Shown here piece by piece: positions 25,174 to 49,295 of a stretch of DNA of 56,710 nt (its first letter is position 1; each line of letters opens with the position of its first letter). This DNA is from an uncultured Verrucomicrobiota bacterium (lineage in GTDB: Bacteria; Verrucomicrobiota; Verrucomicrobiia; Limisphaerales; UBA1412). Made by a program: the position numbers and the translations under genes. The stretch spans positions 1 to 56,710 of the forward strand of contig CAZSTC010000003.1 of the NCBI GenBank assembly GCA_964609795.1, given 5' to 3'. The notes below the pieces were generated by a model. That model saw nothing but the letters and a program-made list of their open reading frames with translations, was not told the DNA's origin and searched no databases.

Positions 25174-25224
25174 CCAAGATACCCTTCTAAATAAATGGCT
25201 TGAATTGAAACCTTCCGACTAAGC

Positions 25225-25253: not shown

Positions 25254-25287
25254 GACCCCTAACAGTCAGAATACTGAGTGAGTTATT

Positions 25288-26627: not shown

Positions 26628-26662
26628 CGAACCGAGGTGTTTTATGGCCTCGGTTTCGTTTT
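26628..26662 (+). terminator. intrinsic terminator after oxidoreductase
   Basis: AACCGAGG-N9-CCTCGGTT then TCGTTTTT. Confidence 0.7.
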
Positions 26663-26819: not shown

Positions 26820-29800
26820 ATGAGCGTCAGGATACTGTTGATTCTTATCTGTTTATTATTAGGGAGCCCGCTCTCAGGATGGGCCGAAAGGGTGACTCTT
26901 CTTCCTCGGAGTAGCGAATGGAAGTATTTTAAGGGGACAAAATCTCCCTCTCTTTTGCCAACTTTTTGGTCTCAGCCTTCTTTTAAGGATGATTCTTGGC
27001 TAAGCGGAATTACCCCCCTCTATTATGGCGGCAACATTGCTTCGGGAACTCATTTGTCAGACATGCGAGGTTATTACTCAAGCGTGTACATGAGGAAAAC
27101 TTTTCTTTTTCCTGAAGGGGAATATTCAAGTTTTACTCTAAATGCTCTCAGCGACGATGGTTTTATCCTTTGGCTCAATGGTATGGAGCTGTTTCGTTAT
27201 AATGTTCCGGATAGTAACATCGGCTATGATGGGGTTGCTGAAAGCTTGATAACAGTACCCGTATGGCAGGCGCATAATTTTGACGATCTAATTTCTTCCA
27301 CTTTGTTACCTGGCGAAATTAATACGTTTGCAATACAGGCTTTCAACGTTAGTTTAGACAACAGTGGTGATTTCGCTATAGATATTGAGCTCACGGCTGA
27401 AGTCTCCTATGATTTCTCCTCGCCGACGATCGTGGATTTGTACCCACAGCCAGAAGCACAGATTTCGAATACCCCCTGGGTTACAGTGACTTTTAGTGAA
27501 CCGGTCCTCAATGTAACGCATTCGGATCTTCTCTGTGATGGCAAAGCGGCTTCGAGCATTCGAGAATTAAATTCCTCCCAATACCTTTTTGAATTTCCCG
27601 GTATAGGCCAAAATGGAAGAGTTTTTTTTAATTGGGATCCTGATACAAAAATTTGTGACGCTTCTCCAAATGCCAATCCCTTTTCTCCTCCCGGCGAAGA
27701 ATGGTACTATGACGTGCGAACAGATTTGTCTGTTCCCAAAGTGCAAATCAACGAAATCATGGCTGTAAACAGTTCCTCTATAAAAAATCGCCAGGGAGAA
27801 TACGTTGACTGGATTGAGCTTTATAATTTTGGAGACCAAACCATAGATATTGGTGGATGGTACCTGACGGATTCGGCTAAAAATCTGACGCAATGGAGTT
27901 TTCCCCAAGGAACCATGCTTCAGCCGGGAGGGTATTTGGTTGTTTTTTGTGACAGTTCCTATTCACAGCCGCTTTTACTTGGAGAGTATCATGCCAATTT
28001 CAGTTTGAGTCAGAAAGGTGAATACTTAGCTCTGGTTTACTCCGATGGGCATACCATCATACACGAGCTTTCACCTACATTCCCCGCACAACGTTCCGAT
28101 ATTTCTTATGGACAAGGATTGTTTTACACAACGCCTACTCCCGGGAAATCAAATGCAGTGGGTTATATGGAACCCGTAGCAGAAATTAAATATAGTGAGC
28201 CAAGAGGATACAAACTCGCTCCTTTTCAGCTTACTCTCTCCACTCCTACAGAAGGGGCGTTTATCTACTATACACTTGATGGAACTGTGCCTGATGAAAA
28301 TTCTACTCCTTACAAAGCTCCACTTCAGATCGATAAAATAACGACACTTCGAGCCGTCGCTATAAAAGAAGGCCATTTGAATTCTACAATCGCTACACGT
28401 ACTTGGCTTTTCATGGAAGAGGTCTTAACTCAGCCGACATCCACCCCTCCAGGTTGGCCAGTGTCGGGCACAGTTAATGGACATAGAATGGAATATGGAA
28501 TGAACCTTGGCATTGTCAATTCCGCGGAATTTCAACAGGATGTTAGAAAGGGGTTAACAAACATCCAAAGCATTTCAATGGTAACGGATTTGGAAAACTT
28601 GTTTAATAGATCCACGGGTATTTATGTTAATCCCGCTGAGCATGACACTGCTTGGGAAAGACCGGCATCTTTTGAGTTAATTGATCCGAACGGGGGAGGG
28701 GAGTTCCAAATTGATGCCGGAATTCGTATTCGAGGTGCTGCCAGCCGCACCAGCAGTAACCCCAAGCATTCCTTTCGCATTTTTTTCCGCTCCAGTTATG
28801 GAGGTGAACTTAACTTCCCGCTTTTCGGAGATGAAGGAGTCTCTGTGTTTGATAAAGTAGATTTGAGAACATCCCAAAACTACTCTTGGGCTTTTGAACA
28901 AACCCCTTATGAGACTTTTATACGAGAGACGTTTGCACGGGATGCACAACGGGATGTTGGAATGCCTTACACCCGCAGCCGTTATTATCATCTCTATATT
29001 AATGGGCAATATTGGGGGCTGTATCAAACTCAAGAACGAAGCGAAACCAGCTACGCTGAGAGCTACCTGGGCGGAGATAAGGAAGATTGGGATTTACTAA
29101 AAACGGAGCAACCGCAGCGAACAACTGTGGTTTCTGAAGGTAACGACAAAGCAGCCAGAGACCTCTTTAGCATCGCCGTTGAAAAAGGTTTCTCTGGGGC
29201 AAATTACACGAACTATTATTACATCAAAGGATTAAACCCTGACGGTACAATTAACCCCAACTTCCCGGTCTATTTGGATGAAGTTAACTTGCAGGAATAT
29301 ATGTTAAACGTCTATGTCACCTGCGACACAGATTCTCCAATTTCAGTTTGGGGGGGCTTTGCTAATAATCTTTTCGGACTTTATAACCGAGTAAATCCCA
29401 CAGGATTTAAGTGGTTTCGGCATGATGGTGAACATGCTTTGGGTGGACGCCGCTTTCTTGGGTATGGCGAGTTTTTCAATCTCGTAGATCAAGGTTGGGA
29501 TTACAATAACTTTGATAGATTTAATCCCATGCGCTTACACCAAAAGCTGATGGAACACCCGGAGTATCGGATTAAGTTCATTGATTTAGTTCAAAAACGG
29601 ATTCTGACCGAGGGTGGTGAATTCACCTTACCCAAAAACATTGAGCGCTGGGATGCCAGAATGTCTGAGATTTATGAACCCATTGTTGTTGAATCCGCTC
29701 GGTGGGGACATGGTTTCACGCGCAATGATTGGTTGAAGGAATGTAACTACGTTACAAACGTTTTCTTCAATGTATATCCTGATAACTTAATAGCAAACTT

Positions 29801-31364: not shown

Positions 31365-31394
31365 CGTATCAATATTTAAACGGTATCGCCGATT

Positions 31395-34300
31395 ATGAAA
31401 AAATTTCTGATTATAGTGGGATTGTCGCTGGTGTTCGTTTTTGCTTCTTTGGCAGAAGTTGTGACCTTGGTGCCTGCCGGAAGTGAGGATTGGGCTTATT
31501 TTAAGGGTACAAAAAATGCAAGTTACCCTACAAGCGCATGGCGATCCCTCTATTTTAACGATAGCGAATGGTTAAGAGGGGCTCTGCCTCTTTATTACGG
31601 GGGCAATATTTCTTCAGGAACACAGCTTTCGGATATGCGCTACGGTTATACCAGCGTCTATATGCGGAAAACATTTTTCCTCCCCACTGCCACATATGAA
31701 AACTTGAATGTAAGTATCTTGTGTGATGATGGTTTTATTCTCCGGATTAACGACACCGAGGTTCTTCGCTATAACGCTCCATCCGGGGAGGGAAGATACA
31801 ACGATATTTCAACTTCAATAGTCTCGACAGCTCAATGGCTCACATATGATTTGAACGATTTCAGTTATCTTTTAAAAAGCGGAGAAGAGAATATCCTGAC
31901 TGTACACGCTTTCAATTGTCATTTGTCGACCAGCAGCGATTTTGTTTTGGATTTGGAGCTTAGAGCGGATAAAACCTATGATGTCACACCCCCAACGTTG
32001 GTGAACGTCCTTCCACAGGAGGGAGGTTCCATAGCCAATCCACCTCGGATAACCGTCACTTTTAGTGAAGGGGTTTCCGGTGTTGAGGCAAATACGTTGT
32101 TTTGTAATGGTCAAGCAGCAGCAAGCGTTCGAAAATTGAGTTCAAGCCAATATCTTTTCGAGTTTAGTAAGCATGACCAGAGTGCAGAAATTACTCTCAC
32201 CTGGAATGAATCCGCGCACATATATGATAACTCTTCAAACAAGAATCCATTTGTTGTTCCTACAGATATCTGGACTTATTACTTAGATACGAGCCTTCCG
32301 AATTTTGATATCGTTATCAATGAAGTTTTGGCTGCTAACAGTTCGGGAATAAAAAGCTCATTGGGGAGTCGTCCCGATTGGATTGAGCTTTATAACCAGG
32401 GTCCCCTTGCGGAAGACCTCGGCGGATGGTTTCTGACAGATTCTGCCAGTGATTTGCGCCGCTGGCAATTCCCTGAAAACACTCTTCTCAGGCCAGGTAA
32501 TTTTCTTTTAATTTTTTGTGATGGTTGGGCTGGTGAGCCTTTTGTAAATGGAGAGTACCATGCCAATTTCAGTTTAAATAAAGATGGCGAATATTTGGCT
32601 CTTGTTTATTCCGATGGGAAGACAATAGTGCAAGAGTTCAATCCCGCCTTGCCCCAACAATACACAGATATTTCTTTTGGTTCGGGCCTTTACTATCCAA
32701 TCCCAACGCCTGGTGAAATTAACGGAAGAGGCTATCTGGAACCTGTGAGCGACGTGGTTTTCAGCGAGCCACGGGGATATCGTCCTGCCCCGTTCGAGCT
32801 TTCTCTTTCTACTTTCACGGAGAATGCCTCCATTTATTACACCCTCGACGGGACCGAGCCAACGATAGACTCCACTCTTTACACAGAGCCGCTCCCAATA
32901 GATAAAATTACCTATATTCGAGCAATCGCCCTCAAGGATGGACACATTCCATCTAAAGTAGCTACGCGAACCTGGCTTTTCACTGATGAGATATTGAGTC
33001 AACCTACAACACCTCCTACCGGGTGGCCAGGATCCTATGCTATTAATAATCACAAGATGGAATATGGGATGAACTCCTTTATTGTGCTTAAAAATAGAGA
33101 AGCTTTGAAGCAGGGGATGACTAATATATCGTCAATTTCTTTGGTAACAGATCTCAAGCATCTCTTCGACCGTTCTACGGGAATTTACGTTAATCCTGGG
33201 AGTGACGGTGAAAATTGGGAACGCCCCGTTTCTGTTGAGTTGATTGATCCGTCGGGAGGAGATGAGTTCCAAATTGAATCGGGTATTCGCATTCGTGGTG
33301 CTGCAAGCCGAAATAACAACAACCCTAAACATTCGTTTCGCCTCTTTTTCCGCTCAACTTACGGTGGAAAATTAGAGTTCCCTCTTTTTGGGGATGAAGG
33401 AGCTTCTTCGTTTAGCAAGGTAGACCTTCGCACCTCTCAAAACTATTCATGGGCCAACGAAAACTCAAATTATAACACTTTTATTCGGGAAGTGTTTTCT
33501 CGCGATTCACAACGTGATTTTGGTGTTCCGTATACCCGAAGCCGTTACTATCATCTTTACATTAATGGCCAATATTGGGGACTTTATCAGACTCAAGAAC
33601 GCAGCGAGGCTGATTATGCAGAGAGCTATTTAGGAGGAGATGAGGATGACTGGGATTGCATTAAAACCTCTCATGCCGGCTATAGGACGGAAGCTGGAGA
33701 TGGTACTATGGATGCTTTTTCAGACCTTTGGCGGATTTCATTAGGACAAGGTTTTGCCGGTATATATGACACCAACTACTATTGGATCAAAGGCATTAAT
33801 TCGGATGGTACACCAATCCCTGATTCTCCAAGATACCTTGACGAGGATAATTTAATTGCATACATGCTGATCTCCTACTACACAAGAGATCCTGATTCTC
33901 CTATCTCGGTATGGGGTGGGTTCCCCAACAATCTCTATGGTCTTTATAATCGAAACAACCCGGAGGGTTTTAAATGGTTGCGTCATGATGCTGAACACTC
34001 AATGGCGGCTCAGCGCTCTTACAACGCCTATACTGACCCGACTGCATATGGATTAACAGGCTATGACTCCTTCACACAGTTTAGCCCGATGAGGCTTCAT
34101 CAGCGTTTAATGAGCAATCCAGACTACAGAATGCGCTGGATGGATACTGTTCAACGCCATTTGGTGGCAACGAATGGCTTGCTTTCAGTTGAAAACTGTT
34201 TAGCTCGCTGGAACAAAAGACAGGCAATGATTGATCAGGCCATCTTTATGGAATCTGCCCGTTGGGGCCATGGTACTAAAACAAGAGAGACTTGGCTCAA

Positions 34301-35363
34301 TGAGTGTAACTATGTGAAAAATTCATTCATACCGCAAAGCGGTACAAACCTAGTTAATTTTTTCTTAAATCGCGGTTGGTTTACCGGGATCAAGGCTCCG
34401 GTTTTTGGCTCTTGGGAGCAAAATGAAGACGGAAATTTTGTTGTTACTTTTTCCGGTTATGGAGTAACCACGGCGACATACTACACATTGGATGGAAGCG
34501 ACCCAAGGCTCCCGAAAGGTGATTTGAGTCCTTCTGCTATTAAACTGGAAACTGAAACAATTATTATACCTACCGGCTCCGTGGTTTCAGCTCGTGTATT
34601 CGCAAACCCTCTTTCTTGGAGTCCCATTTCTGTAAAAGATTTTACGGTGTACGGAGAATCTCATGACCTCAAAGTAACTGAAATGATGTACGCTCCTGAA
34701 ACACCTGAGTGGGCAGAAGAAGCCGGTTGGACTCGTGATGATTTTGCTTGGCTAGAACTACAAAACGTTGGTTCTGGCACTCTTGAGCTCGAAGGATATC
34801 AATTTGTTTCAGGTATAAACTATATTTTCTCTTCCGGCAGACTTGCCCCGGGAAATAGAGTCGTTTTGGCAAAAAATAGAGATGCATTTTCTCGCCTTTA
34901 TGAAACGAATGGTTTGTTTTTACTGGACGGCTATTCGGGTAACCTGGCTAGGAAAGGTGAGACTATTACTCTTCAATCTCCTGCTGGAGATAATATTTTA
35001 AGCTACACTTACTCGAATGCTTGGTATCCCCAGACTGATTTGACTGGCTACTCATTAGTTGTCGTGGATGTTAATGCTGAAGAGCCCCTTTGGAGCACTT
35101 CTGATAACTGGACTCCCAGCCTGACAGAGGGTGGTACCCCGGGGAAGAATGAAGTCATTTCTCCTGTCATTAAAAAAGCAACTCTTACAAAGAATAGAGA
35201 ATTAATTTTTGAAATTTCTGGAATGACTGAGTTCGAGGTAGAGATTTCAAGGGACACAGTGATGTGGGAAGTATTTGAGAATTGGTATCTTCAAAATGGT
35301 AATATCGTGGTTGATTTGAAAAATATAAGTGAATCCGCTTTGTTTTTTAGAATAAGTTTATAA
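31395..35363 (+). CDS. secreted CotH-kinase/lamin-tail multidomain protein, paralogue 2 (1322 aa)
   Basis: Same module order as paralogue 1 minus second jelly-roll; DPD..NN..HDAEH; ends FFRISL. Confidence 0.85.
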   Translation: MKKFLIIVGLSLVFVFASLAEVVTLVPAGSEDWAYFKGTKNASYPTSAWRSLYFNDSEWLRGALPLYYGGNISSGTQLSDMRYGYTSVYMRKTFFLPTATYENLNVSILCDDGFILRINDTEVLRYNAPSGEGRYNDISTSIVSTAQWLTYDLNDFSYLLKSGEENILTVHAFNCHLSTSSDFVLDLELRADKTYDVTPPTLVNVLPQEGGSIANPPRITVTFSEGVSGVEANTLFCNGQAAASVRKLSSSQYLFEFSKHDQSAEITLTWNESAHIYDNSSNKNPFVVPTDIWTYYLDTSLPNFDIVINEVLAANSSGIKSSLGSRPDWIELYNQGPLAEDLGGWFLTDSASDLRRWQFPENTLLRPGNFLLIFCDGWAGEPFVNGEYHANFSLNKDGEYLALVYSDGKTIVQEFNPALPQQYTDISFGSGLYYPIPTPGEINGRGYLEPVSDVVFSEPRGYRPAPFELSLSTFTENASIYYTLDGTEPTIDSTLYTEPLPIDKITYIRAIALKDGHIPSKVATRTWLFTDEILSQPTTPPTGWPGSYAINNHKMEYGMNSFIVLKNREALKQGMTNISSISLVTDLKHLFDRSTGIYVNPGSDGENWERPVSVELIDPSGGDEFQIESGIRIRGAASRNNNNPKHSFRLFFRSTYGGKLEFPLFGDEGASSFSKVDLRTSQNYSWANENSNYNTFIREVFSRDSQRDFGVPYTRSRYYHLYINGQYWGLYQTQERSEADYAESYLGGDEDDWDCIKTSHAGYRTEAGDGTMDAFSDLWRISLGQGFAGIYDTNYYWIKGINSDGTPIPDSPRYLDEDNLIAYMLISYYTRDPDSPISVWGGFPNNLYGLYNRNNPEGFKWLRHDAEHSMAAQRSYNAYTDPTAYGLTGYDSFTQFSPMRLHQRLMSNPDYRMRWMDTVQRHLVATNGLLSVENCLARWNKRQAMIDQAIFMESARWGHGTKTRETWLNECNYVKNSFIPQSGTNLVNFFLNRGWFTGIKAPVFGSWEQNEDGNFVVTFSGYGVTTATYYTLDGSDPRLPKGDLSPSAIKLETETIIIPTGSVVSARVFANPLSWSPISVKDFTVYGESHDLKVTEMMYAPETPEWAEEAGWTRDDFAWLELQNVGSGTLELEGYQFVSGINYIFSSGRLAPGNRVVLAKNRDAFSRLYETNGLFLLDGYSGNLARKGETITLQSPAGDNILSYTYSNAWYPQTDLTGYSLVVVDVNAEEPLWSTSDNWTPSLTEGGTPGKNEVISPVIKKATLTKNRELIFEISGMTEFEVEISRDTVMWEVFENWYLQNGNIVVDLKNISESALFFRISL

Positions 35364-35389
35364 ATATATTTTTAGTTTTTAATAATCTA

Positions 35390-38300: not shown

Positions 38301-41300
38301 AATGTGATTGGGTAAAAAATAATTTTCTCTCATTACGTATGGGCTATTTAACCACACACCTTAAGAATCGTGGTTGGTACCCTAAAGTGGCTGTTCCCAC
38401 TTTTTCGCAATCTGGAGGCGAGCTATTACAGGACACACAGATTTACCTGGCCGGAGGAGGAACAGTTTATTACACACTGGATGGATCTGATCCAAGGCTT
38501 CCAGGCGGAGAGCTGAACAGCGCTTCTTTAAAATTAGAACCTTCTTTTTCAGAAGAGAGAGTACTCGTTAATAAAGGCAGTGAGTGGGATTACTACGACC
38601 TGGGCGACACCCCGGCTCGAGAAGGGACTGCTTATTGGTATCAAGCGTCACATTCGCATGAAGGTTGGGCACAAGGACCTGCCCGCTTTGGTTTTGGTGA
38701 TAAGCAATTTCAAACAGAAATCAGCCGCTATAAAATTGATGGCACTACACCGCTTGTGACGGCATATTTTTCAAAGCGCTTTGAAGTGTTTTCGGCTATA
38801 ACAATTCCGGAATTACTTCTGGAACTTAATTGTGATGACGGTGCTGTGGTTTACCTTAATGGCTATAGAATTGTGGATCAAAATATGCCTTTAGCCTATT
38901 TGACTGCTGATCTATTAGCCAATTCAGACGTTTCCGGGGCGGCCGAGGACGAGTATACTTCTTACCAGATTGATAGTAAATATCTGGTGGATGGTATAAA
39001 TACGATTTCTGTTGAAGTTCATCAAAGTAGTCCGCAGAGCGACGATCTTTATTTTGACTTGGAATTAAAAGCTTTGGGTGGTTATTCGGGTGGAGCCTCG
39101 GAAGGAATTGTAATAGCATCGCCGGGTGCTGTAATAAAGGCACGCTCATTAAGTTCTGATGGTGAATGGAGTGCAATCTCTGTAGCTGATTTCACGGTTT
39201 TCTCTGAAGCCACTGATCTCAAAGTTACTGAGCTGATGTATGCGCCTGAAACACCTGCTTGGGCAGAAGAACAGGGCTGGACTCGAGATGATTTTGCCTG
39301 GATTGAGCTTCAAAACACGGGACGTGGTATTTTGAAAATGGATGGTTTTTCTTTTGTAGAGGGCATCAATTATACCTTTCCTGTCTTTACATTGGAATCT
39401 GGCGAGTATGTAGTCCTTGCTAAAAACTTGCAGGCATTTTCAACCTTATACGACACAAATGGTATCATTCTTTTAGATAACTATTCCGGCAATCTTGCTC
39501 GGAAAGGTGAGACGCTCACCCTTTATTCGCCGAAAGGTGAAAACGTTCTTTCCTTTACATATTCCAATGAATGGTATCCGGAAACCGACCAGAATGGATA
39601 TTCATTAAATGTGGTAGATATAGAAGCCCCGTTGTCTCTCTGGAGTACATTGGAGAACTGGAAGGTCAGTGCAACTCGTGGAGGAAGCCCAGGCAGTGAT
39701 GATGGCGGTGTAATTGAACCTCCTACGCTCAGCACAATTTCCCCGGGAGAAGGAGGTCAGTTGGCGCTAAACACAGGGGATTCCGTTACTTTTTCTGTCA
39801 CTTCGAGTGGTTCAGCACCTGTGCGATATCAATGGTTCAAGAATGGTGTGGCTTTGCCGGGTACAACAAGCACCCGATACACTATCAACAATCTGACGCC
39901 TCTTCATGCAGGAGTTTACACTGTTACTGCCACAAACAGGGCCGGCAGTGTTACCAGCGAAGAATTGAACTTAACGGTCATCTTTGAATTAAAGCTCTCG
40001 TCTATTACCATTTCAGGTAATTCCTCGGTGACTGAAGGCAAAACCGCTATGTACACCTGCACTGCCAATTACAACGATGGCAGCTCAAAGCAGGTAATTC
40101 CGGATTGGTCGGTATCGCCCACTCAGTATGCCACCATAGATACCAATGGACTTCTCTCCGCTTTGGCGGAGGGTGAAGTGGATGTCACTGCATTTTACGA
40201 GGATGGCAGCATAAGCAAGACTATCTCAAAAGTTGTGACTATTGCCTCATCTATTATTCCGCCCTCATTCCTTTCACAGCCTGTGAGTCAAACAATCAGA
40301 GAAGGAGAGTCTGTCACCTTGAGTGCAACGGTCCAGGGTTCTGAGCCTTTAGTTTTTGAGTGGAATAAAAACGGTGTAATTGTGGAAGGATCTAATTCTT
40401 CTTCTTATACTATTGACAGTGTAGCCCCCTCTGACGCTGGAACTTATACTTTAACGGTTACTAATTCGAAGGGAAGTGCTACCAGCGAACCTGCTTATCT
40501 AAAGGTCGTTACCGGTAGTGGGCTTCAGCTGATGCTCGATTTTCAATTTAACGAAGGCACCGGCAGAAATACTACGGACAGTGTGAGCGGAATAGTTGCT
40601 GACTTGGGGGACAGTGTTTCAGAAGACAAACCGTTTTTCACGACAGAATCACCTTCCGGAAAACCTGGTGATTATGCAGCGCTCCTGCAAGGCTCAAGTT
40701 GGCTATTGGGATGGTTTGAAACAGCCCCCCTAGATATCTCCGAACCCTTCACTTTTGAGTCGTGGATTTGGATGAATCCTGACAGTAGCGGTTATAGAGA
40801 TTTGATTCGACTTGGAGAAACGCTCAAATTTGGTTTCGGCAATTCGGATGACTTATTTCAAGCTACCTTCCTAGGCGTTGTTGATGTAAATTCCACAATC
40901 TCGGTGCCCAGAGGTGATTGGGTACATTTGGCGTGCTCCTGGGAGCCGAATGTTGGGTTTCACTTTTTTCAAAATGGGATTGCATCCGACATGGTTCAGT
41001 CTACTGCGTTTCCTAATAATTACGTAAGTGCATCACTTTCTATTGGAGCTAATGAGAGCGGAGTAAGTCCATTCCGCGGTAGAATGGATCGGGTTCGGCT
41101 TCATAAGGGGCTTTTAAGTGCCTCTGAATTGGATTCAGACCCAATTAATCCAAAACCGGTCACGGAAAATACAATCTTATCCTATGATTTTAATTCTACC
41201 ATTCTTCCTTTTGCGAGTGATGGGACCTTCAGCATCCCTCTTTATAATGAGGATATTTCTACAACCAACCCCAACGCGGTGAATTGGTCAAACTCGACAC

Positions 41301-43087
41301 CGACTAAGGATCAAAATTGGCCAGGCTCTGAAAATGATTATTCTCTCTATATCGACAACAGCACTGTGCAAGGTAGTACTACTCACAGAATTATTTTCCC
41401 AACAGAGAAGTTGGTGTTTGAGGACCAATCCGATCCGAGTTTTTCAATGGAAGCTTGGATTAAGGGTTTTGAAAGAAGGACATCAAAGCAGGTCTTCTTG
41501 CAAATTCTTGGAAGTCCAACAGGCGGTGTACCACGTATAGCTTTTGCAGTCAGCTCAGACTTGACGGTTTACATGACAACTATGGGGCTTCAAGATATTG
41601 ATACGGGTGTTCCAATCCCGGAAGATGGAATGTGGCATCATATTGCTTGCGCATATGACCATTCAGCCCAAAAAATATACACTTATGTGGATGGTGAACT
41701 GAAAGGTGAGCTGGATTATGGTCAAGGCGTAAATTTTTCGCCCTACCAAGCTGATGTTAGAGGTTGCATTGGTAGCGAATGTTCAGGAGGTAATCACACC
41801 ACGGGTTATGTTGATCGGATTCGAGTCTACAAGGGAGTGCTTTTGCCAAGAGACCTGGACTACCAGGATTATAGCCAGGTAATAGATGTCCCGGTAATTA
41901 CTCTTCAACCCGAAAGTCAAAATGTGGATGAAGGAGAAAATGTCGTTTTCTCCGTTGCTGCAACGGGAACTGAACCCCTGACTTATCAATGGTACAAAGA
42001 TGATGTGGCTATTAATGGGGCTGTAAGTTCTTCTTACACGCTTCAGAGTGCCGTTTTAGTTGATTCAGGAAATTACTTTGTAACTGTAAGCAATGCGGGA
42101 GGCTCTGTCTCAAGTCAATCAGCGACGCTGCAGGTTAAAACACCTGTGACCGTCTTTACCGTGCGGGCGAATGATGTCGCCCGTGTTTACAAAACACAAA
42201 ATCCAGTCTTTACGTACACTATTCTCAACTCGGAGGGTGAGGATGTGACATCAATTATTTCGGGTAAGCCGACTTTAAGTACGACAGCCCTTTTAGGGAG
42301 CTCTGCAGGAACTTACCCTATTGTTCCAACAAGGGGGACATTACCCTCTTCTAATCAGTATCAGTATGTCAGAGGAACCTTAACAATCAATAAGGCAAAG
42401 CCTCAAATCACGTGGGCTTCTCCATCACCCATTGTATACGGGACTTCTTTAGGTGCCGGCCAATTAAATGCGGTTGCTGACGTCGCCGGGGTTTTTGAAT
42501 ATACTCCGCCTACAGGTACAATTCTCGAAGTGGGACTCCATGAACTTCATGTTTCATTGACTCCAACAGAGATTAATAATTATGAAATAGCTGAAAAAAC
42601 AGTTCAGCTTTCAGTTGATCCTCTTCATACATTGATTCTTGATCCCGAATCCCAGTTGGTCTCAGCCGGAGGCGGGGAGTTTAACATTCAGGTCTCTTCA
42701 ACAACGCCTTGGGTCGCAACGGGCCCTGAAGGAGAAGATTGGATTCAAATTACAAACGTTGAGTCTGATCCGGGTAATCATGGCTTGATTAGTTATCAAG
42801 TTCTTGAAAATACCCGGACCGAATCTCGCCAGGCAATCATTAAAGTTCAATCTACAGAGTTACCTTTCATATTCTCGGAGCATTTATTGACTCAAGAGCC
42901 GGCTCAACAGGAGTACCCCGTCGTGAGTTTTAAAGTAGAAGGAAACGCTCTTACACTCACTTTCACTGGAAATCTCTATGAAAGTGAGGATATGCTCTCT
43001 TGGACTTTGATCGAGGGGGCGCAACTGACTTACACGGTGGATATTTCGAATAAAAAACATAGATATTATAGGTCTATAATTGAGTAG
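35390..43087 (+). CDS. secreted CotH-kinase/lamin-tail protein with Ig, LamG, MBG and BACON tail, paralogue 3 (2565 aa)
   Basis: CotH core as above; Ig repeats, Big_2-like domain, two LamG-like domains, MBG-like and BACON-like domains; ends YYRSIIE. Confidence 0.85.
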   Translation: MKKWLSIGSLLLGMLVLSHAEILTLVPSSAQWKYAKGTKEPSTSTGTWRTIAFDDSDWNTSAAPFYYGGNITQGTLLSDMRYNYSSVYLRKTFSPPSGSYENLSLRALSDDGFILWINGEEVLRFNVSPGEIAFDAVASSVVGTASWQTHDLSEYSHLLRAGEVNVVAVHAFNMSRTTSSDFAIDVELTANQTLDLLSPTINRVSPIVNSVVSDPLRLTVYFSEPVSGVTAADVLCNDTTAMEVEEITSSQYLFKFPKFDIEGPVTLKWNSTANISDNSPNHNPFIPPTESWSYTLSASVPDSDVIINEFLASNTTGLQTRSGEQADWLELYNKSNTTTDISGWYLTDSRSNLPLWQFPPRTTIPPQGYLIVFCNGWTGDPQVNGEYLANFSLSKTGEYLALVKDDGTTIAHEFHPVYPPQYSNISFGNGLYYPIPTPGKENGEGFLEPVGEVTFSEPRGYKSAPFTLSMNSTTEDAVIYYTLDGTIPTTSSTRYRDPLSIDKITCIRAIAIKAGHIDSIVSTRTWLFLEEALAQRSSVPAGWPANNTVNNHRMVYGMKQDIVNNPRYRDSIREGMTNIGTISMVTDLENLFNRSTGIYVNPSGDGITWERPASLELIDPSGGEEFQLESGVRIRGGFSRSSSNPKHSFRLFFRSEYGGKLNFPLFGNEGATEFSKVDLRTSQNYAWSYLAGNPPEYNTFIRETFTRDSQRDVGMPYTRSRFYHLFINGQYWGLYQTQERSEADFAETYLGGDDNDWDCVKSGAVASDGTIDGFSKLFQIAVQEGFSGAYRTNYNRIKGLNPDGTPNPNLPQYLDEENLIQFVLNYFFTADPDSPIGLGGNSPNNLYGLFNRVNPSGFSWYRHDAEHSMGAWRNSGVSTTYDMTARGWSMNTIGTFTPVRLHQKLMDHPDYKMRFIDLYQQTYLNKNGAMSTRSNLFRWNSRQNEVDKAIYAESARWTWDSNMTYEHWLAECDWVKNNFLSLRMGYLTTHLKNRGWYPKVAVPTFSQSGGELLQDTQIYLAGGGTVYYTLDGSDPRLPGGELNSASLKLEPSFSEERVLVNKGSEWDYYDLGDTPAREGTAYWYQASHSHEGWAQGPARFGFGDKQFQTEISRYKIDGTTPLVTAYFSKRFEVFSAITIPELLLELNCDDGAVVYLNGYRIVDQNMPLAYLTADLLANSDVSGAAEDEYTSYQIDSKYLVDGINTISVEVHQSSPQSDDLYFDLELKALGGYSGGASEGIVIASPGAVIKARSLSSDGEWSAISVADFTVFSEATDLKVTELMYAPETPAWAEEQGWTRDDFAWIELQNTGRGILKMDGFSFVEGINYTFPVFTLESGEYVVLAKNLQAFSTLYDTNGIILLDNYSGNLARKGETLTLYSPKGENVLSFTYSNEWYPETDQNGYSLNVVDIEAPLSLWSTLENWKVSATRGGSPGSDDGGVIEPPTLSTISPGEGGQLALNTGDSVTFSVTSSGSAPVRYQWFKNGVALPGTTSTRYTINNLTPLHAGVYTVTATNRAGSVTSEELNLTVIFELKLSSITISGNSSVTEGKTAMYTCTANYNDGSSKQVIPDWSVSPTQYATIDTNGLLSALAEGEVDVTAFYEDGSISKTISKVVTIASSIIPPSFLSQPVSQTIREGESVTLSATVQGSEPLVFEWNKNGVIVEGSNSSSYTIDSVAPSDAGTYTLTVTNSKGSATSEPAYLKVVTGSGLQLMLDFQFNEGTGRNTTDSVSGIVADLGDSVSEDKPFFTTESPSGKPGDYAALLQGSSWLLGWFETAPLDISEPFTFESWIWMNPDSSGYRDLIRLGETLKFGFGNSDDLFQATFLGVVDVNSTISVPRGDWVHLACSWEPNVGFHFFQNGIASDMVQSTAFPNNYVSASLSIGANESGVSPFRGRMDRVRLHKGLLSASELDSDPINPKPVTENTILSYDFNSTILPFASDGTFSIPLYNEDISTTNPNAVNWSNSTPTKDQNWPGSENDYSLYIDNSTVQGSTTHRIIFPTEKLVFEDQSDPSFSMEAWIKGFERRTSKQVFLQILGSPTGGVPRIAFAVSSDLTVYMTTMGLQDIDTGVPIPEDGMWHHIACAYDHSAQKIYTYVDGELKGELDYGQGVNFSPYQADVRGCIGSECSGGNHTTGYVDRIRVYKGVLLPRDLDYQDYSQVIDVPVITLQPESQNVDEGENVVFSVAATGTEPLTYQWYKDDVAINGAVSSSYTLQSAVLVDSGNYFVTVSNAGGSVSSQSATLQVKTPVTVFTVRANDVARVYKTQNPVFTYTILNSEGEDVTSIISGKPTLSTTALLGSSAGTYPIVPTRGTLPSSNQYQYVRGTLTINKAKPQITWASPSPIVYGTSLGAGQLNAVADVAGVFEYTPPTGTILEVGLHELHVSLTPTEINNYEIAEKTVQLSVDPLHTLILDPESQLVSAGGGEFNIQVSSTTPWVATGPEGEDWIQITNVESDPGNHGLISYQVLENTRTESRQAIIKVQSTELPFIFSEHLLTQEPAQQEYPVVSFKVEGNALTLTFTGNLYESEDMLSWTLIEGAQLTYTVDISNKKHRYYRSIIE

Positions 43088-43139
43088 AATTCCTAAAATT
43101 GACGACAATATAATCCTGGTAAAACTAAATTTAAATAGA

Positions 43140-46100
43140 ATGAGAAAGTTCTACATGTTTATTGGAATGCTTTTTTGCATAACGTTTGTTTCTTTTGCTG
43201 AAGTGTCGCTTACATCAGCGGCTGACTCTCAACCAAAGGAGGTAGAGCTTGGGGATAACGTAATCACTGAAGACACAGCTATTCCTAATATTATCATTAA
43301 TGAGATTGTTGCGAGTAACGCGACTGGCTTAAGAACCCGCAAGGGCAATTATGAGGATTGGGTAGAGCTTTTTAATCCGACCACTGAGTCCGTAAATATC
43401 AGTGGATGGTATCTGACGGACTCTCTCAACAATCTGGCTCAGTGGCAATTCCCCGATGGAGTCATTCTCAAACCAGGGGGCTTTTTAGTTGTTTTCTGCG
43501 ATGGTTGGGTTGATTCTCAACCGCTGGGAGAATATCATTCCAATTTCAGCTTAAGTAAATCGGGCGAGTACTTAGCCCTTGTTGCCGCTGATGCTGAAAC
43601 GATTGTTTATGAACTTGCACCTTCTTTTCCTCTACAATATAAGGATGCATCTTACGGATGCATTCCGGCTTCCATAGCGAACTCCGAGCAGCAGTGGGCA
43701 TATTTTAAAACTCCGACACCCGGCGCTTCCAACACAGGGACTCCGCTCTGGGGTATGGTTGAGAGTGTGACTTTTAGTGAATCTCAAGGCTACAAGAGCG
43801 GTCCCTTCAGTTTAACCTTAGAGTCACCCACGGAAGGATCGAGTATTTATTACACACTGGACGGCACAATTCCCACATCGAAATCATTCCGCTATACTGA
43901 ACCGATTTCTATAGAAACAATCACTTTTTTGAGGGCTGTTGCCATAAAAGAGGGCTATTTGGATGCTCCTGTAACAACACGCACTTGGCTCTTTATGGAG
44001 GATGTACTCACACAGCCGTCCTCCACACCCGCAGGTTGGCCAAGTTCTTATGCAGTTAATAACCATAAAATGGAATATGGTATGAATTCGTCAATAGTAA
44101 GATATAATAAAACTGCTATTCGAACTGGCATGACTAATATTCAAACCATTTCACTGGTGACCGATTTAAAAAATCTATTTGATTCAAAATCTGGGATTTA
44201 TGTTAATCCAGGGCAAGATGGTGAGGCCTGGGAACGGCCTGTTTCTGTAGAGCTTATAGACCCAAAGGGTGGGGAAGAATTTCAGATTGAAGCTGGTTTG
44301 AGGATAAGAGGAGCTTTTAGTCGCAGCAGCAGCAATCCTAAACATTCTCTTCGCCTCTTTTTCAGGGACAGTTATGGAGGAAAACTGAACTTTCCGCTAT
44401 TTGAAGGTGAAGGCGCTGACACATTCGATAAGGTAGACTTACGCACTTCTCAGAATTTTTCCTGGTCTTTTGAAGGTTCCCCTTACAACACGTTTATACG
44501 AGAAACATTTTCACGAGACGCTCAGGGAGATTTTGGTATGCAATATACTCGCAGCCGCTACTACCATCTTTTTATTAATGGACAGTATTGGGGATTGTAT
44601 CAAACACAGGAGCGCAGCGATTCTGATTATGCCAAAACTTATTATGGAGGATCGGGTGACGACTGGGATTGTATAAAAACATCTCAGCCGGGTTATTACA
44701 CTGAAGCTTCTGATGGGAACATAAATGCTTTCAGTGATCTTTATAATATTGCCGTCAAACAGGGATTTTCCGGACTGTACTCGACAAATTATAATTGGAT
44801 TAAGGGAGTCAATCCTGATGGTACTCCCATTCCAGAATCACCGGTTTATTTGGATGAAGATAATCTAATTGCCTACATGTTGATTACGTATTTTGCTCGT
44901 GACCCAGATTGCCCTGTGGCGGTCAACAGCCATGCAAATAATCTCTATGGGCTTTATAATCGAGTCAATCCTACCGGTTTCAAATGGTTCAAGCATGACG
45001 GCGAGCACTCAATGGCGGCTAATCGCTCGTATCCGGTGACAACGGATCTCACTTCTCACGGTTGGCATTTGAATACTTTGGCTAATTTTAATCCGATGCG
45101 TCTGCACCAGAAATTGATGGATCATCCGGATTATAAAATGCGCTGGGTGGACACTGTCCAAAAAGAAATGCTTAATCCGGGCGGTGCATTGACATTGAGC
45201 AACAGCTTGGCTCGCTGGAATAAGCGCCAGGCTGAAATTGACCAAGCTATCATTTTGGAGTCAGCCAGATGGGGACATGGCCGTGATCGCGGTGACTGGT
45301 TAAGGGAATGCGATTACGTTAAAGAGAGCTTTATTTCATTAAGTGCCGATTACTTAATGAAAAATTTTAAAAGCAGGGGGTGGTTCCCTGCAATAGAGGC
45401 TCCTATTATTTCTGATATAATGCGTTCCAATGAAAGCATCACTTTTACTCTTTCTGGAGCCCTTAACCTTTATTACACTTTAAATGGGGATGATCCTCGA
45501 TTGCCGGGCGGAGAATTAAATCCCTTTGCCAATAAATTGGTAGCCCAGCCTGTAGGAGAGAAGACCCTAATAGGCAAAGGAGAAACTTGGAGATATTTTG
45601 ATGAAGGGATTGCTCCTCCTAAAGACGGTATGTTTTTCTGGTATCAAAAGGGATATTCTTACAATTACTGGAAAGAGGGGGCCGGGAGGTTCGGCTTTGG
45701 TTCTCGGCCGGTAAAAACATCTATCAACCGCTACAAAACCGACACAAACGAACCTCTGATAACCGCGTATTTTTCAAAAACATTTGAGGTTACATCTGCC
45801 AGTTTAGTTCCGGGGTTGACCATAGATATTAATGCAGACGATGGTGCTGTTGTATACATTAATGGTAGCCGTGTTTTGCTGCATAATATGGAGACTGGAT
45901 ACAATTATTATTCCTATGCTAAGTCCGAAGTCTCTGGCTCTGACGAGAACACCTATTTTTCCTACGAAATCGATAGTAAATATCTGGTCGATGGTGAAAA
46001 CATGATTTCAGTAGAAATTCACCAAGGTAGTCCGGAAAGCGATGATTTCTATTTTGATCTGGAACTCTCAACGATGTCCGGACAAAGCGAATATGGCACT

Positions 46101-48182
46101 GAAGGTTCTCTAACCGTTGCTCCTGGAACGCTCATAAAAACTCGCTCTTGGAATGGGGTAGAGTGGAGCGCTATTACTGAATTGGACCTTACCGTTTATG
46201 GCGAACAAACTGATCTCAAAATAAATGAAATGATGTACTCATCGCCTGTGCCTGACGACGCTGCTGAGCACGGATGGGACCGCGATGATTATTCTTGGAT
46301 TGAATTAAAAAATACCGGCAAAGGTGTCCTTGATACCCAGGAAATTCAGTTTACAAGTGGAATTGAATATACGCTTCCTCAGTTGCTCCTTCATCCAGGC
46401 GAAATGCTGGTTCTTGTTAAAAATTTGGATGCTTTTTCGACACTCTATTCCACTAATGGAATGACTATTTTAAGTGGTTTTTCAGGAAACCTGGCAAGGA
46501 GAGGGGAGAATATCACAATTCAAGCGGCTGATGGATCAAACATCCTAAGCTTTAATTACTCTAGTTCCTGGTATCCTGAGACAGACCAAGGAGGATACTC
46601 CCTGGAAGTCGTAGACACTGCCGCCGAAGAATCAGTTTGGAGCAGTGCTTTAAATTGGAAATCAAGTTCTCTAATGTACGGAACTCCAGGTGCTGAAAAT
46701 GACTCTTCCGGTGGCATTCCCCCAATTATAAAAATACAACCCAAAGACCAATGGGTAACTGAAGGGGAGAATGTTCTCTTCTTTGCTACTGTGGTTGGAT
46801 CCTCTCCCTTAAACTATCAGTGGTATAAGGATGGTTCCCCTATTGAAAATGCTAACACCTCACAACTCATACTTTCCGGAACTAAACTTTCGGATGCCGG
46901 GAGTTATGCAGTTGAAGTGACTAATCCGGCTGGCTCCCTTATGAGCAGACAGGCTACGCTCCTCGTACAGGTGTTTATTCCTGTCCCTCCCTCAATTATC
47001 CTTCAGCCGGAAAATCAAATTGTAATGGCTGGCGAAAGCGCGAGCTTCATAGTTGCAGCATCCGGCTCCGAACCGTTAAATTATCAATGGTATAAAAACG
47101 GGATTCCAATAGAAGGGGCTGTTCGCAACAGCTATACTATTCCGGTAGTTAAAACAGGAGATCAAGCTAATCTGTACACAGTGCGTGTCAGCAATATGCT
47201 CAGCTCACTGATGAGCAGCCCCGCTGGTCTGACTGTGATGGATGGACCAATCCTCAAAAAAGGAGATTTCATTATTGCTATAGATCCGAATTCAAGCAGC
47301 TATCCGTCCAACGAAAATCCTCCGCTCGCCATAGACGGGGATACAGGTACTAAATATTTGAATTTTGGTGGTGTCAATTCTGGCTTTATCACTACCCCTT
47401 CAGTGGGGCACTCGCTAATAAGCTCTTTTGCCATAACAACAGCCAATGACGTTGAAGGACGTGATCCAGCCAGTTACGATATCTATGGGACAAACGAGAA
47501 AATACTGAGTATGGATAAAAGTCCGGGCACTGCAGAAGGGTGGACATGGATAGCAAGCGGAAGCTTAAGTTTGCCCACAGAAAGGTTCACGGAGAGTGGG
47601 TGGATTAATATAGAAAATAGCACTCCCTATCGTTCCTATAAAGTTGTTTTTTCGAGCCTCAAAGTCCCCTCTGTCGGGATGATGCAATTGTCTGAGTTTC
47701 AATTTTATGGAGTTGTTTGGACCAATGGAGTCCCGGTCATAGCTACCCAGCCTTCCGATTATGTGGTCCTGGAAGGAGGAACAGCAATACTCTCGGCTGT
47801 TGCAATGGGCACCCTGCCTTTGAGTTACCAATGGTATAAAGATGGAAACATCTTAACCGGGGAAACAGAGTCCAGAATAACATTCCCAGATTCTGTTCCT
47901 TCCGATTCAGGCGTTTATTTTCTGGAAGTGACAAATTCTCTTGGCTCGACAACCAGCTACCAAGCCACTCTCACCGTAATTCCAGAAGTGATTGAGCCGC
48001 CAACTCTCAAGTGCTCGATAGAAGGGGATTTGCTGGTAATTGATTTTTCGGGGGTGCTCTATGAAAGCACCGATATGGTTGAATGGACTTTGGTAGAGAA
48101 TGCTCAGCCACCTACTTACAAAGTGGAAATTCAAAAATCAGGAAATCAGTACTATTTGGCGGCCTATTCTGACGCGCCATAA
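43140..48182 (+). CDS. secreted CotH-kinase/lamin-tail protein with Ig and discoidin-like tail, paralogue 4
   Basis: Signal peptide from ATG 43140 (ORF track starts at TTG 43080); lamin-tail, CotH core DPD..NN..HDGEH, three Ig domains, TANDVEGRDP discoidin-like domain. Confidence 0.85.
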   Translation: MRKFYMFIGMLFCITFVSFAEVSLTSAADSQPKEVELGDNVITEDTAIPNIIINEIVASNATGLRTRKGNYEDWVELFNPTTESVNISGWYLTDSLNNLAQWQFPDGVILKPGGFLVVFCDGWVDSQPLGEYHSNFSLSKSGEYLALVAADAETIVYELAPSFPLQYKDASYGCIPASIANSEQQWAYFKTPTPGASNTGTPLWGMVESVTFSESQGYKSGPFSLTLESPTEGSSIYYTLDGTIPTSKSFRYTEPISIETITFLRAVAIKEGYLDAPVTTRTWLFMEDVLTQPSSTPAGWPSSYAVNNHKMEYGMNSSIVRYNKTAIRTGMTNIQTISLVTDLKNLFDSKSGIYVNPGQDGEAWERPVSVELIDPKGGEEFQIEAGLRIRGAFSRSSSNPKHSLRLFFRDSYGGKLNFPLFEGEGADTFDKVDLRTSQNFSWSFEGSPYNTFIRETFSRDAQGDFGMQYTRSRYYHLFINGQYWGLYQTQERSDSDYAKTYYGGSGDDWDCIKTSQPGYYTEASDGNINAFSDLYNIAVKQGFSGLYSTNYNWIKGVNPDGTPIPESPVYLDEDNLIAYMLITYFARDPDCPVAVNSHANNLYGLYNRVNPTGFKWFKHDGEHSMAANRSYPVTTDLTSHGWHLNTLANFNPMRLHQKLMDHPDYKMRWVDTVQKEMLNPGGALTLSNSLARWNKRQAEIDQAIILESARWGHGRDRGDWLRECDYVKESFISLSADYLMKNFKSRGWFPAIEAPIISDIMRSNESITFTLSGALNLYYTLNGDDPRLPGGELNPFANKLVAQPVGEKTLIGKGETWRYFDEGIAPPKDGMFFWYQKGYSYNYWKEGAGRFGFGSRPVKTSINRYKTDTNEPLITAYFSKTFEVTSASLVPGLTIDINADDGAVVYINGSRVLLHNMETGYNYYSYAKSEVSGSDENTYFSYEIDSKYLVDGENMISVEIHQGSPESDDFYFDLELSTMSGQSEYGTEGSLTVAPGTLIKTRSWNGVEWSAITELDLTVYGEQTDLKINEMMYSSPVPDDAAEHGWDRDDYSWIELKNTGKGVLDTQEIQFTSGIEYTLPQLLLHPGEMLVLVKNLDAFSTLYSTNGMTILSGFSGNLARRGENITIQAADGSNILSFNYSSSWYPETDQGGYSLEVVDTAAEESVWSSALNWKSSSLMYGTPGAENDSSGGIPPIIKIQPKDQWVTEGENVLFFATVVGSSPLNYQWYKDGSPIENANTSQLILSGTKLSDAGSYAVEVTNPAGSLMSRQATLLVQVFIPVPPSIILQPENQIVMAGESASFIVAASGSEPLNYQWYKNGIPIEGAVRNSYTIPVVKTGDQANLYTVRVSNMLSSLMSSPAGLTVMDGPILKKGDFIIAIDPNSSSYPSNENPPLAIDGDTGTKYLNFGGVNSGFITTPSVGHSLISSFAITTANDVEGRDPASYDIYGTNEKILSMDKSPGTAEGWTWIASGSLSLPTERFTESGWINIENSTPYRSYKVVFSSLKVPSVGMMQLSEFQFYGVVWTNGVPVIATQPSDYVVLEGGTAILSAVAMGTLPLSYQWYKDGNILTGETESRITFPDSVPSDSGVYFLEVTNSLGSTTSYQATLTVIPEVIEPPTLKCSIEGDLLVIDFSGVLYESTDMVEWTLVENAQPPTYKVEIQKSGNQYYLAAYSDAP

Positions 48183-48844
48183 TGAAAAGTAGTTACGATC
48201 GCTTTTTCCATGAACGAGAGCTTTTTCAGACAGCCCACACCTATCCAATTGCGGGCGTAGATGAAGCCGGGCGAGGGCCTCTTGCCGGTCCCCTAGTCGT
48301 GGCTGCAGTTGTTCTGCCTGAAGAGTGGATTGTTGAAGGAGTTCCAAGATCTCTGGTGGACTTGAACGACTCAAAAAAGACATCCCAGCTTAACAGAGAA
48401 AAATTCTACGAGTGTCTGCAATCGGATGATAATATAGCGAAGGCGATCGTGGAGGTAAGCGTCGAAGAGATTGAAAAAATAAATATTTTACAAGCTACTT
48501 TTCTCGGAATGCGCTTGAGCCTGGAACAAATTATGAGCCAAGGGATAGCATTGAAACATGTCTTAGTTGATGGCCCCTTTGCGCCGCCGGTTCCTTATCC
48601 TTGTACTCCCTTAATTAAGGGAGATTCAAAAAGTTATTCTATAGCAGCAGCCAGTATCCTTGCGAAAGTGTATAGAGATAGGATTATGATCCAATACGCT
48701 GAAAAGTGGCCTGCTTATGGTTTTGAACGCCACAAAGGCTACGCCACCCGAGAACACAAAGAGGCACTTCGAGCTTTAGGTCCTTGCCCTATCCATCGAA
48801 AAACTTTTCTTCATCTTGAGGTGCAGGGTGAATTCACTTTTTAG
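48182..48844 (+). CDS. rnhB: ribonuclease HII
   Basis: IAGVDEAGRGPLAGP, LNDSKK, VLVDG, IKGDSKSYSIAAASILAKV, GFERHKGYAT, GPCPIHR. Confidence 0.97.
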   Translation: MKSSYDRFFHERELFQTAHTYPIAGVDEAGRGPLAGPLVVAAVVLPEEWIVEGVPRSLVDLNDSKKTSQLNREKFYECLQSDDNIAKAIVEVSVEEIEKINILQATFLGMRLSLEQIMSQGIALKHVLVDGPFAPPVPYPCTPLIKGDSKSYSIAAASILAKVYRDRIMIQYAEKWPAYGFERHKGYATREHKEALRALGPCPIHRKTFLHLEVQGEFTF

Positions 48845-48851
48845 TGGGTCA

Positions 48852-49295
48852 ATGAAAATAGCATGGCTTAAAAAACTTCTGAAATTAATTACACCGTTAC
48901 CTCAACATCTATTGGTTGGCAGGAGAGGGGAGCAATGTGCAAAAAAACATCTTTCTAGTCTGGGGATGAAACATCTCACTTCCAATTTTTCATGCGAATC
49001 CGGTGAGATTGATTTAATTTTCAGAGAGGGTGAAATATTAGTATTCGTGGAAGTGAAAACAAGGACTCAGGCAACAGAGCACGGACTTATTGTGAGGCCT
49101 GCAGGAGCGGTCAATCAAAACAAACGGGATGCTATTCATGCCACTGTTAAGTGTTATCTTCGGAAAATAAAGCCATTAAGACCTGTTTGGAGAGTAGATA
49201 TTGTAGAGGTAATACTGGATGCAAAAATGAACCCACTGAAGATTACCCATATACAGGGAGTACCCTTGAAAAAAGGTTTTTCTAATAGAAAATGA
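48852..49295 (+). CDS. yraN: YraN family (UPF0102) nuclease-like protein
   Basis: GRRGEQCA, GEIDLI, LVFVEVKTR, WRVDIVEV; follows rnhB (ORF track starts at GTG 48816). Confidence 0.9.
   Translation: MKIAWLKKLLKLITPLPQHLLVGRRGEQCAKKHLSSLGMKHLTSNFSCESGEIDLIFREGEILVFVEVKTRTQATEHGLIVRPAGAVNQNKRDAIHATVKCYLRKIKPLRPVWRVDIVEVILDAKMNPLKITHIQGVPLKKGFSNRK

Follow-up and report, generated by a model that had tools for sequence, protein, structure and literature searches.

A lineage-specific tandem array of four predicted secreted CotH-family proteins in an uncultured Verrucomicrobiota bacterium

We analyzed a 56,710-nt stretch of contig CAZSTC010000003.1 from an uncultured Verrucomicrobiota bacterium (hereafter, the window), in which four large genes of the CotH family lie in tandem between positions 26820 and 48182 (~21 kb). 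CotH1 (26820..31364), CotH2 (31395..35363), CotH3 (35390..43087), and CotH4 (43140..48182) are all located on the plus strand, encode proteins of 1514, 1322, 2565, and 1680 aa, and are separated by gaps of 30, 26, and 52 bp. These open reading frame (ORF) coordinates confirmed the orientation, lengths, and spacing given in an earlier interpretation of the same DNA (referred to as the “sequence-only reading”), which had proposed that the locus is a new extracytoplasmic phosphorylation system. In the ORF list, CotH4 starts at a TTG (43080). Reading from the ATG at 43140 (MRKFYMF...) instead places a typical signal peptide (MRKFYMFIGMLFCITFVSFA/EV) at the N-terminus, and the resulting protein equals in length the gene-caller prediction for the CotH4 orthologue in a related contig. 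The ATG was taken as the start, which gives the gaps stated above.

Behind the signal peptide, Pfam searches revealed a common cassette in CotH1–4, consisting of a lamin tail domain (LTD), a CHB_HEX_C_1/Fn3_assoc domain, the CotH domain, and a second LTD. The profile check that the sequence-only reading had suggested for CotH and LTD was run, and the CotH model (PF08757) matched all four proteins at 62–77 bits (lowest, 62.5), against a cut-off of 23.8 bits, over profile positions 1–313 of 322. The LTD and the CHB_HEX_C_1/Fn3_assoc domain on the N-terminal side were also matched in all four. That each core is flanked by two LTDs was borne out to varying degrees on the C-terminal side, where the domain scored above the Pfam cut-off in CotH2 (aa ~1090–1207, 39 bits) and CotH3, fell below it in CotH4 (26.8 bits), and was visible in CotH1 solely through 54% identity to the C-terminus of CotH2. 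No dockerin was matched by Pfam in any of the four, and an NCBIfam scan returned no informative model.

The modules around this cassette, particularly those on the C-terminal side, vary between the copies. In CotH1, the signal peptide is followed by a jelly-roll-like N-terminal module, an Ig-like domain, the LTD (aa 306–413), CHB_HEX_C/Fn3_assoc (aa 465–528), the CotH core (aa ~525–1005), a second jelly-roll-like module with a weak BetaGal_ABD2 match, a divergent LTD, and a C-terminal beta domain. CotH2 follows the same plan without the second jelly-roll module, and its core spans 32955..34397 on the plus strand (aa 521–1001). CotH3 (core, 36953-38395) also begins on the CotH1-type plan and then extends into a long tail with three Ig_3 stretches, a Big_2, two Laminin_G_3 stretches, an MBG_2, and a weak BACON match. 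The N-terminal module of ~290 aa (jelly-roll-like plus Ig-like) common to CotH1–3 is missing from CotH4, in which the signal peptide leads straight into the LTD, CHB_HEX_C, and CotH (core, 43968-45401), with three Ig_3 stretches behind a weak LTD farther downstream. CotH1, CotH3, and CotH4 each repeat the jelly-roll module after the kinase core.

Each of the four proteins opens with a few charged residues, continues into a hydrophobic segment, and then shows a cleavage site of the small-x-small type (GWA/E, SLA/E, SHA/E, and SFA/E). Based on these (S/G)-x-A sites, which were assigned by eye rather than by a predictor, the four products look like Sec-exported proteins, in line with the signal peptides described earlier. 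CotH1–3 additionally close with a beta-type domain of ~70 aa (31150-31361, 35150-35360, and 42880-43084) that ends in a ...W...[FY][FY]R.. tail (FFRIRL, FFRISL, and YYRSIIE) and is matched by no Pfam or NCBIfam model. The same tail is terminal in 65 of 247 long family members, and a similar internal YVFYRAI occurs around 24500-24650 within a gene for a GLUG/Ig surface protein upstream of the array. This domain could be a sorting or anchoring domain of a type particular to the Planctomycetes-Verrucomicrobia-Chlamydiae (PVC) group.

We further examined the conserved motifs of the CotH cores. RIRG..SR..PKHS[FL]R, [YF]YHL[YF]INGQYWGLYQTQER, DxD, NN, and [RK]HD[GA]EH are present in all four proteins. 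The DxD motif starts at 29325, 33888, 37880, and 44901, and the [RK]HD[GA]EH motif at 29421, 33984, 37976, and 44994, in agreement to the codon with the sequence-only reading. In CotH1, the catalytic segment (29325..29435, plus strand) reads D836-x-D838, N849-N850, and R-H-D869-G-E-H.

To characterize the fold, CotH2 aa 521–1001 was modeled with AlphaFold2 from 46 aligned sequences, and the model was confident throughout, with a predicted local distance difference test score (pLDDT) of 93.2 and a predicted template modeling (TM) score of 0.92. The top Foldseek matches were the Bacillus cereus CotH kinase structures 5JDA and 5JD9 (with and without AMP), with E-values of 4e-13 and 6e-13, a probability of 1.00, and target-normalized TM scores of 0.74–0.75 at ~14% identity. 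The next matches, after a large gap, were the secreted Helicobacter pylori kinase CtkA and the PI3K/PI4K lipid kinases. An earlier model built from a narrow 9-sequence profile (A2) that starts at LIDP and cuts ~95 residues of the N-lobe had a pLDDT below 50 over its N-terminal ~80 residues and gave nothing significant in Foldseek. The CotH cores are thus predicted with high confidence to adopt the atypical kinase fold of Bacillus CotH.

Sequence comparison pointed to the same enzyme once the profile was broad enough. Neither phmmer with the CotH1 core nor profile A2 found a CotH match among the PDB sequences. Profile A4, in which A2 was widened with LTD-CotH cores of Firmicutes, Bacteroidota, and other phyla from a genome scan, matched 5JD9/5JDA at an E-value of 2.5e-12 over chain residues 81–357. 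In the A4 alignment, the family Asp of ..D-W-P.. pairs with the Asp of the 5JD9 segment NFDGF, the conserved Asn with HNY, and the Asp of ..D-x-D.. with the first Asp of PWDYD. The two aligned Asp residues of 5JD9 are 23 positions apart, which is the spacing of D228 (catalytic) and D251 (metal-binding) in Bacillus subtilis CotH, where substitution of either inactivates the enzyme (PMC7821199). The equivalents are D838/D869 in CotH1, D834/D865 in CotH2, D833/D864 in CotH3, and D590/D620 in CotH4, and the candidate catalytic Asn is N846 in CotH2, N845 in CotH3, and N601 in CotH4; in terms of the motifs above, they correspond to the second Asp of D-x-D, the Asp of HD, and the second Asn of NN. 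Both essential Asp residues and the Asn are therefore conserved in all four proteins. Both Asp residues, the Asn, the Lys of PKHS, the Gly and Arg of G-x-R-x-R-G, and the Glu of QTQER are also invariant across 46 diverse family members. As far as computation goes, the description of the cores as kinase-type and catalytically intact is upheld by the fold match to 5JDA and the conserved Asp and Asn, and the core appears to have kinase geometry at the level of fold and catalytic residues, which the sequence-only reading had named as the point on which it could fail.

To assess the age and maintenance of the copies, we compared them with one another and with their orthologues. Paralogue pairs share 50–59% amino-acid identity over 770–1490 residues and have reached saturation at synonymous sites (pS ~0.8). 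Each of the four genes has a dN/dS of 0.08–0.12 against its orthologues in two related contigs (88–92% amino-acid identity), indicating that all of them are under purifying selection. DNA identity between the copies does not exceed ~78% over any stretch, which rules out recent gene conversion. The earlier suggestion of old copies under selection is thus borne out.

The search for the array in related genomes, which had likewise been suggested, was also run. An exact-sequence look-up of CotH2 in an assembly index gave no record. L001 and L010 (~90% identity) and L009 (70%) carry all four genes in the same array and with the same neighbors, and six further loci (L003–L008) carry at least three copies each before being ended by contig edges. 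Because the array is common to these related genomes, the duplications must be older than their divergence, and all copies have been maintained. The closest CotH relatives occur in metagenome-assembled genomes (MAGs) labeled Verrucomicrobia, Limisphaerales, and Kiritimatiellia, and the isolate names of several point to the rumen (water-buffalo omasum) or an anaerobic bioreactor. To our knowledge, no member of phyla of the Verrucomicrobia/Kiritimatiellae type forms endospores, so that the description of the host as an apparent non-spore-former of the PVC group is reasonable.

To determine how common the family is beyond this lineage, we conducted an exhaustive HMMER search with the core alone against 1.84 billion cluster representatives (50%-identity clusters) and obtained 7,603 representatives at E <= 1e-3, of which 2,114 also passed E <= 1e-30. 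A word-seeded search gave more than 940 matches, nearly all with the same set of Pfam domains and, where named, annotated as “lamin tail domain-containing protein”; these include Verrucomicrobiota and Planctomycetota (Phycisphaerae, Sedimentisphaerales), and the genome scan added Chloroflexota, Clostridia, Bacteroidota, KSB1, and Marinimicrobia. Additional domains on the homologues include PA14, CBM6, F5/8C, LamG, and, in some distant ones, dockerin (PF00404). At 73 other loci, the LTD-CotH gene is almost always present as a single copy within ±10 kb. The tandem array, and not the architecture, is therefore what is particular to the lineage of the window, and the locus is a lineage-specific four-fold tandem expansion of a large, recognized, and functionally undefined secreted family. 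The array as described earlier is accurate and lies far beyond chance. The proposal of a new system was not sustained, as the LTD-Fn3/CHB_HEX_C-CotH architecture is widespread and has been recorded as an extracellular cellulosome component without a defined function.

Two further observations were made among the homologues. Three polypeptides of ~2,800–3,300 aa (P0136, P0159, and P0188) contain two to six separate CotH-core matches, and the core may thus also be duplicated inside single genes elsewhere. In a long-read Planctomycetota MAG, the CotH homologue (L047:9938-13523) is broken into five short ORFs, which probably reflects a frameshift sequencing error or a pseudogene. No title listed by a literature search dealt with CotH proteins in Planctomycetes or Verrucomicrobia; the two apparent matches that were examined were false positives from the author name Schoepp-Cothenet.

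We next considered the genomic context of the array. A terminator-like hairpin with a 10-bp stem followed by a T run (26629..26656, plus strand), located 3' of a GFO/IDH/MocA oxidoreductase gene, is likely the 5' boundary of the CotH transcription unit. In line with the earlier remark that there is no internal terminator, neither of two terminator scans reported a terminator-like site in any of the three gaps between the genes. The stop codon of CotH4 overlaps the start of rnhB (TAATG, window positions 48180-48184), and rnhB, encoding RNase HII, in turn overlaps a UPF0102/YraN gene (48182..49295 for the pair, plus strand). Since the genes are closely spaced and no terminator-like site was reported between them, the four CotH genes would probably be transcribed as one unit that also takes in rnhB and yraN. 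This pair is again found behind the array in a less closely related MAG (L007, GCA_017454685.1), suggesting that rnhB and yraN are probably housekeeping genes that share the transcript, not partners in function. An odd feature is that housekeeping genes close a 21-kb unit of surface-protein genes. A perfect 7-bp hairpin (ATACGCT-TGT-AGCGTAT) without a T run spans the CotH1 stop at 31354-31370 and was not called by the scan.

Upstream of the array (19893..26595, plus strand) lie genes for a glycoside hydrolase family 172 (GH172; DUF2961) glycosidase, the GLUG/Ig surface protein (22417-25173, plus strand), and the GFO/IDH/MocA oxidoreductase (25288-26595, plus strand). In L001, L009, and L010, the genes before the array are GH172, a small PurA-like gene, GLUG/Ig, and GFO. 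GH172, GLUG/Ig, and GFO are syntenic in close relatives only and represent context, not a demonstrated part of the array. ORF clustering of the 73 loci found no partner gene conserved around PVC homologues beyond the lineage of the window, and a multi-component system is therefore unsupported.

The sequence-only reading had singled out the GLUG/Ig protein, described as Ser-rich, as a candidate substrate of a self-contained extracytoplasmic protein-phosphorylation system. In close relatives, synteny of its gene with the array is retained, and its product is predicted to be exported, both of which would suit such a role. However, with 9.7% Ser the protein falls within the range of the CotH proteins (9.1–10.6%) and is not unusually Ser-rich, and it has no Ser/Lys/Arg repeat tracts (SKR-type) like those of CotB and CotG. 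Moreover, the oxidoreductase gene and the terminator-like hairpin lie between the GLUG gene and the array, and the ±10-kb surroundings of those more distant PVC homologues that were examined contain no GLUG homologue. We therefore give this explanation very little credence.

The window is otherwise ordinary chromosome. Its other genes encode SecA, Dus, an ABC transporter, a BamD-like protein, LptE, MscS, IlvN, a PilT-like ATPase, Def, and GlgB, and the presence of LptE and the BamD-like gene indicates a diderm host. Glycan-degrading genes within the window are GH127 and GH172. The GH127 beta-L-arabinofuranosidase gene is flanked by two di-haem cytochrome c peroxidase/MauG-like genes on the minus strand (8686-10593 and 13539-14561), the larger of which also has weak lactonase-propeller and RoxA-like matches.

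The window proteins resemble the Bacillus spore-coat kinase (B. subtilis CotH and B. cereus CotH, 5JD9/5JDA) in their Pfam family, predicted fold, catalytic Asp and Asn, and metal-binding Asp. They differ from it in several respects. Identity is ~14%, and a single-sequence search finds no match. The window proteins are predicted to be exported, whereas Bacillus CotH is cytoplasmic and located in the mother cell. In contrast to Bacillus CotH, their cores sit in multidomain proteins of 1300–2565 aa and carry a 7-residue insertion in the catalytic loop. Substrates with Ser/Lys/Arg repeats of the CotB/CotG type were not found near the array, no cotB- or cotG-like gene was found in the window, and the host is a diderm of the PVC type. 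The sporulation context expected of a functional orthologue of spore-coat CotH is thus lacking at this locus.

A closer parallel is found among the cellulosomal proteins of Clostridia. Clostridium thermocellum Cthe_0239 (“LTD, LTD, Fn3, CotH”) and CseP/Cthe_0044 are extracellular cellulosome components; Ruminiclostridium cellulolyticum Ccel_1101, another cellulosomal CotH protein, was placed by a 2025 paper in a family “without any defined function”; and a 2025 cellulosome review suggested structural or regulatory kinase roles for such proteins. CotH1–4 show the same order as Cthe_0239, with an LTD, an Fn3-associated/CHB_HEX_C domain, and CotH behind an N-terminal export signal. In both groups, extracellular CotH proteins with LTD and Fn3-type modules are associated with polysaccharide-degrading anaerobes, and their function is undefined. 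Unlike the cellulosomal proteins, those of the window have no dockerin, belong to a PVC rather than a Firmicutes host, occur as four tandem paralogues instead of single genes, and share with their PVC clade an extended core with the catalytic-loop insertion.

Extracellular CotH proteins have also been reported in other settings. Dockerin-CotH proteins are known from anaerobic fungi, CotH occurs in a stalk-cluster protein of Zetaproteobacteria, and CotH proteins are among the targets of diversity-generating retroelements. In Streptococcus intermedius, the Pel locus contains a CotH-VTC-DUF4956/MgtC-ACT trio (SIR_1592-1594), which is also found in Clostridium perfringens NELoc-2, and deletion of the CotH-like gene lowers Pel polysaccharide and aggregation. 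This is the only genetic phenotype that we found for a secreted non-spore CotH. As in that trio, the window holds CotH-family proteins with export signals in a non-sporulating context; however, neither the window nor any PVC locus examined contains the VTC and DUF4956 partners. In Mucorales, CotH proteins are multi-copy, signal-peptide-bearing surface proteins that act as invasins and bind GRP78, some of them predicted to be glycosylphosphatidylinositol-anchored. Both they and the window proteins represent several signal-peptide-bearing CotH-domain proteins per genome, whereas the Mucorales proteins are eukaryotic and serve as host-receptor ligands, and the paper does not describe an LTD/Ig architecture for them.

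Taken together, we slightly favor, at a little better than an even chance, the explanation that CotH1–4 are exported phosphotransferases aimed by their differing modules at glycan-rich surface or extracellular material, as judged from sequence and structural models. The four products would be destined for the periplasm, the cell surface, or the surroundings of a saccharolytic PVC bacterium, and the CotH cores would act there as phosphotransferases. Jelly-roll, Ig, LamG, MBG, and BACON-like modules may steer the paralogues to different polymers or surface ligands, and a glycan-rich matrix or glycoproteins would be likelier targets than a dedicated neighboring substrate protein. The phosphate donor could be ATP or another compound such as polyphosphate. 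The accessory domains of the family are mostly glycan- or surface-binding (CHB_HEX_C, LamG, and BACON-like in the array; PA14, CBM6, F5/8C, and dockerin in homologues), and these domains on homologues, the GH172 and GH127 genes in the window, and the Pel phenotype of S. intermedius all point to glycan targets. The idea that accessory domains direct each kinase to different targets, already part of the sequence-only reading, stands insofar as the modules do differ between the copies; the steering itself is our supposition.

Several points weigh against phosphotransfer outside the cell. ATP is scarce outside the cytoplasm of diderm bacteria, and no donor-supplying gene lies near the array; the donor outside the cytoplasm, which the explanation leaves unaccounted for, is its main weakness. 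Because both the single sequence and the narrow profile missed 5JD9, the clade is remote from the characterized enzyme. The N-lobe is not alignable to Bacillus CotH by sequence, so that the ATP-binding Lys is just a candidate (the invariant Lys of PKHS). In the PVC clade, the catalytic-loop insertion (e.g., SPISVWGGF) lies between the catalytic Asp and the Asn, which is found at D+12 rather than at D+5 as in 5JD9 and the Firmicutes and Bacteroidota homologues. It falls at 29331-29363, 33894-33926, 37886-37918, and 44907-44936 (plus strand), and it could alter the chemistry. Signal peptides were judged by eye, we infer both export across the outer membrane and phosphotransfer by this clade, and co-transcription is deduced from gene spacing and the lack of reported terminator-like sites. 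With no evident donor and an altered catalytic loop, extracytoplasmic phosphorylation had been overstated in the sequence-only reading.

A rival explanation is that CotH1–4 are non-catalytic binding or structural proteins, in which the CotH fold serves as a ligand-binding or scaffold module and the array as a set of adhesins with different specificities. Binding modules (Ig, LTD, LamG, and jelly-roll) dominate the proteins, and both the scarcity of extracellular ATP and the insertion in the catalytic loop would fit. The structural role named as one possibility for cellulosomal CotH and the ligand role proposed for the Mucorales invasins also lie in this direction. However, the catalytic-type Asp pair, the Asn, and the other core residues are invariant in the 46 diverse members and the four paralogues. 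Together with a dN/dS of ~0.1, this is the pattern expected of an enzyme and not of a pseudokinase scaffold, and we consider a purely binding role unlikely, though not negligible.

Another possibility concerns the chemistry rather than the location. The cores may draw phosphate from a non-ATP donor, for example exported polyphosphate, or act on small molecules or nucleotides in phosphate scavenging; LTDs are reportedly present on extracellular nucleases such as ExeM. At 13 non-PVC loci (L031, L048, L050-L055, L068, L070, L071, L073, and L074; e.g., L053:12907-14883 and L031:12792-14499), the LTD-CotH gene adjoins genes for a VTC-domain polyphosphate-polymerase-like protein (Pfam E ~1e-40) and a DUF4956 membrane protein, the labels comprising eleven Clostridia-class bacteria, one Caldilineaceae (Chloroflexota), and two unclassified bacteria. 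VTC and DUF4956 were the only recurrent neighbors in the clustering of the 73 loci and occurred at non-PVC loci, and the recurrence of the trio in S. intermedius and C. perfringens adds to this association. Such a neighborhood raises the possibility that exported polyphosphate feeds extracellular CotH enzymes. However, tblastn with 23 VTC/DUF4956 proteins detected no such gene in the window (best E, 0.3) or at any of the PVC loci retrieved, and polyphosphate use is not known for any CotH enzyme. For this array, the link is speculation, and a non-ATP donor or a small-molecule substrate appears distinctly unlikely.

The locus itself reveals no new mechanism, and its significance lies in the family. 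Secreted CotH proteins are abundant and are known from anaerobes that degrade polysaccharides, from cellulosomes, from a Pel locus involved in biofilms, and from pathogenic fungi. The biochemistry of the family has so far come from the Bacillus spore coat only, and recent papers call its extracellular members function-undefined. In the most far-reaching reading, which we regard as a long shot, the array would be a four-protein toolkit for extracytoplasmic phosphotransfer onto surface or substrate glycans, or onto glycoproteins, with a donor other than cytoplasmic ATP, exported polyphosphate being the leading candidate in view of the 13 non-PVC loci. If true, such a toolkit would define what the thousands of secreted CotH-family proteins do in general biochemical terms. 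The four diverged paralogues, each under selection, constitute a natural panel for examining the activity of the core, the donor outside the cytoplasm, and targeting by different sets of modules.

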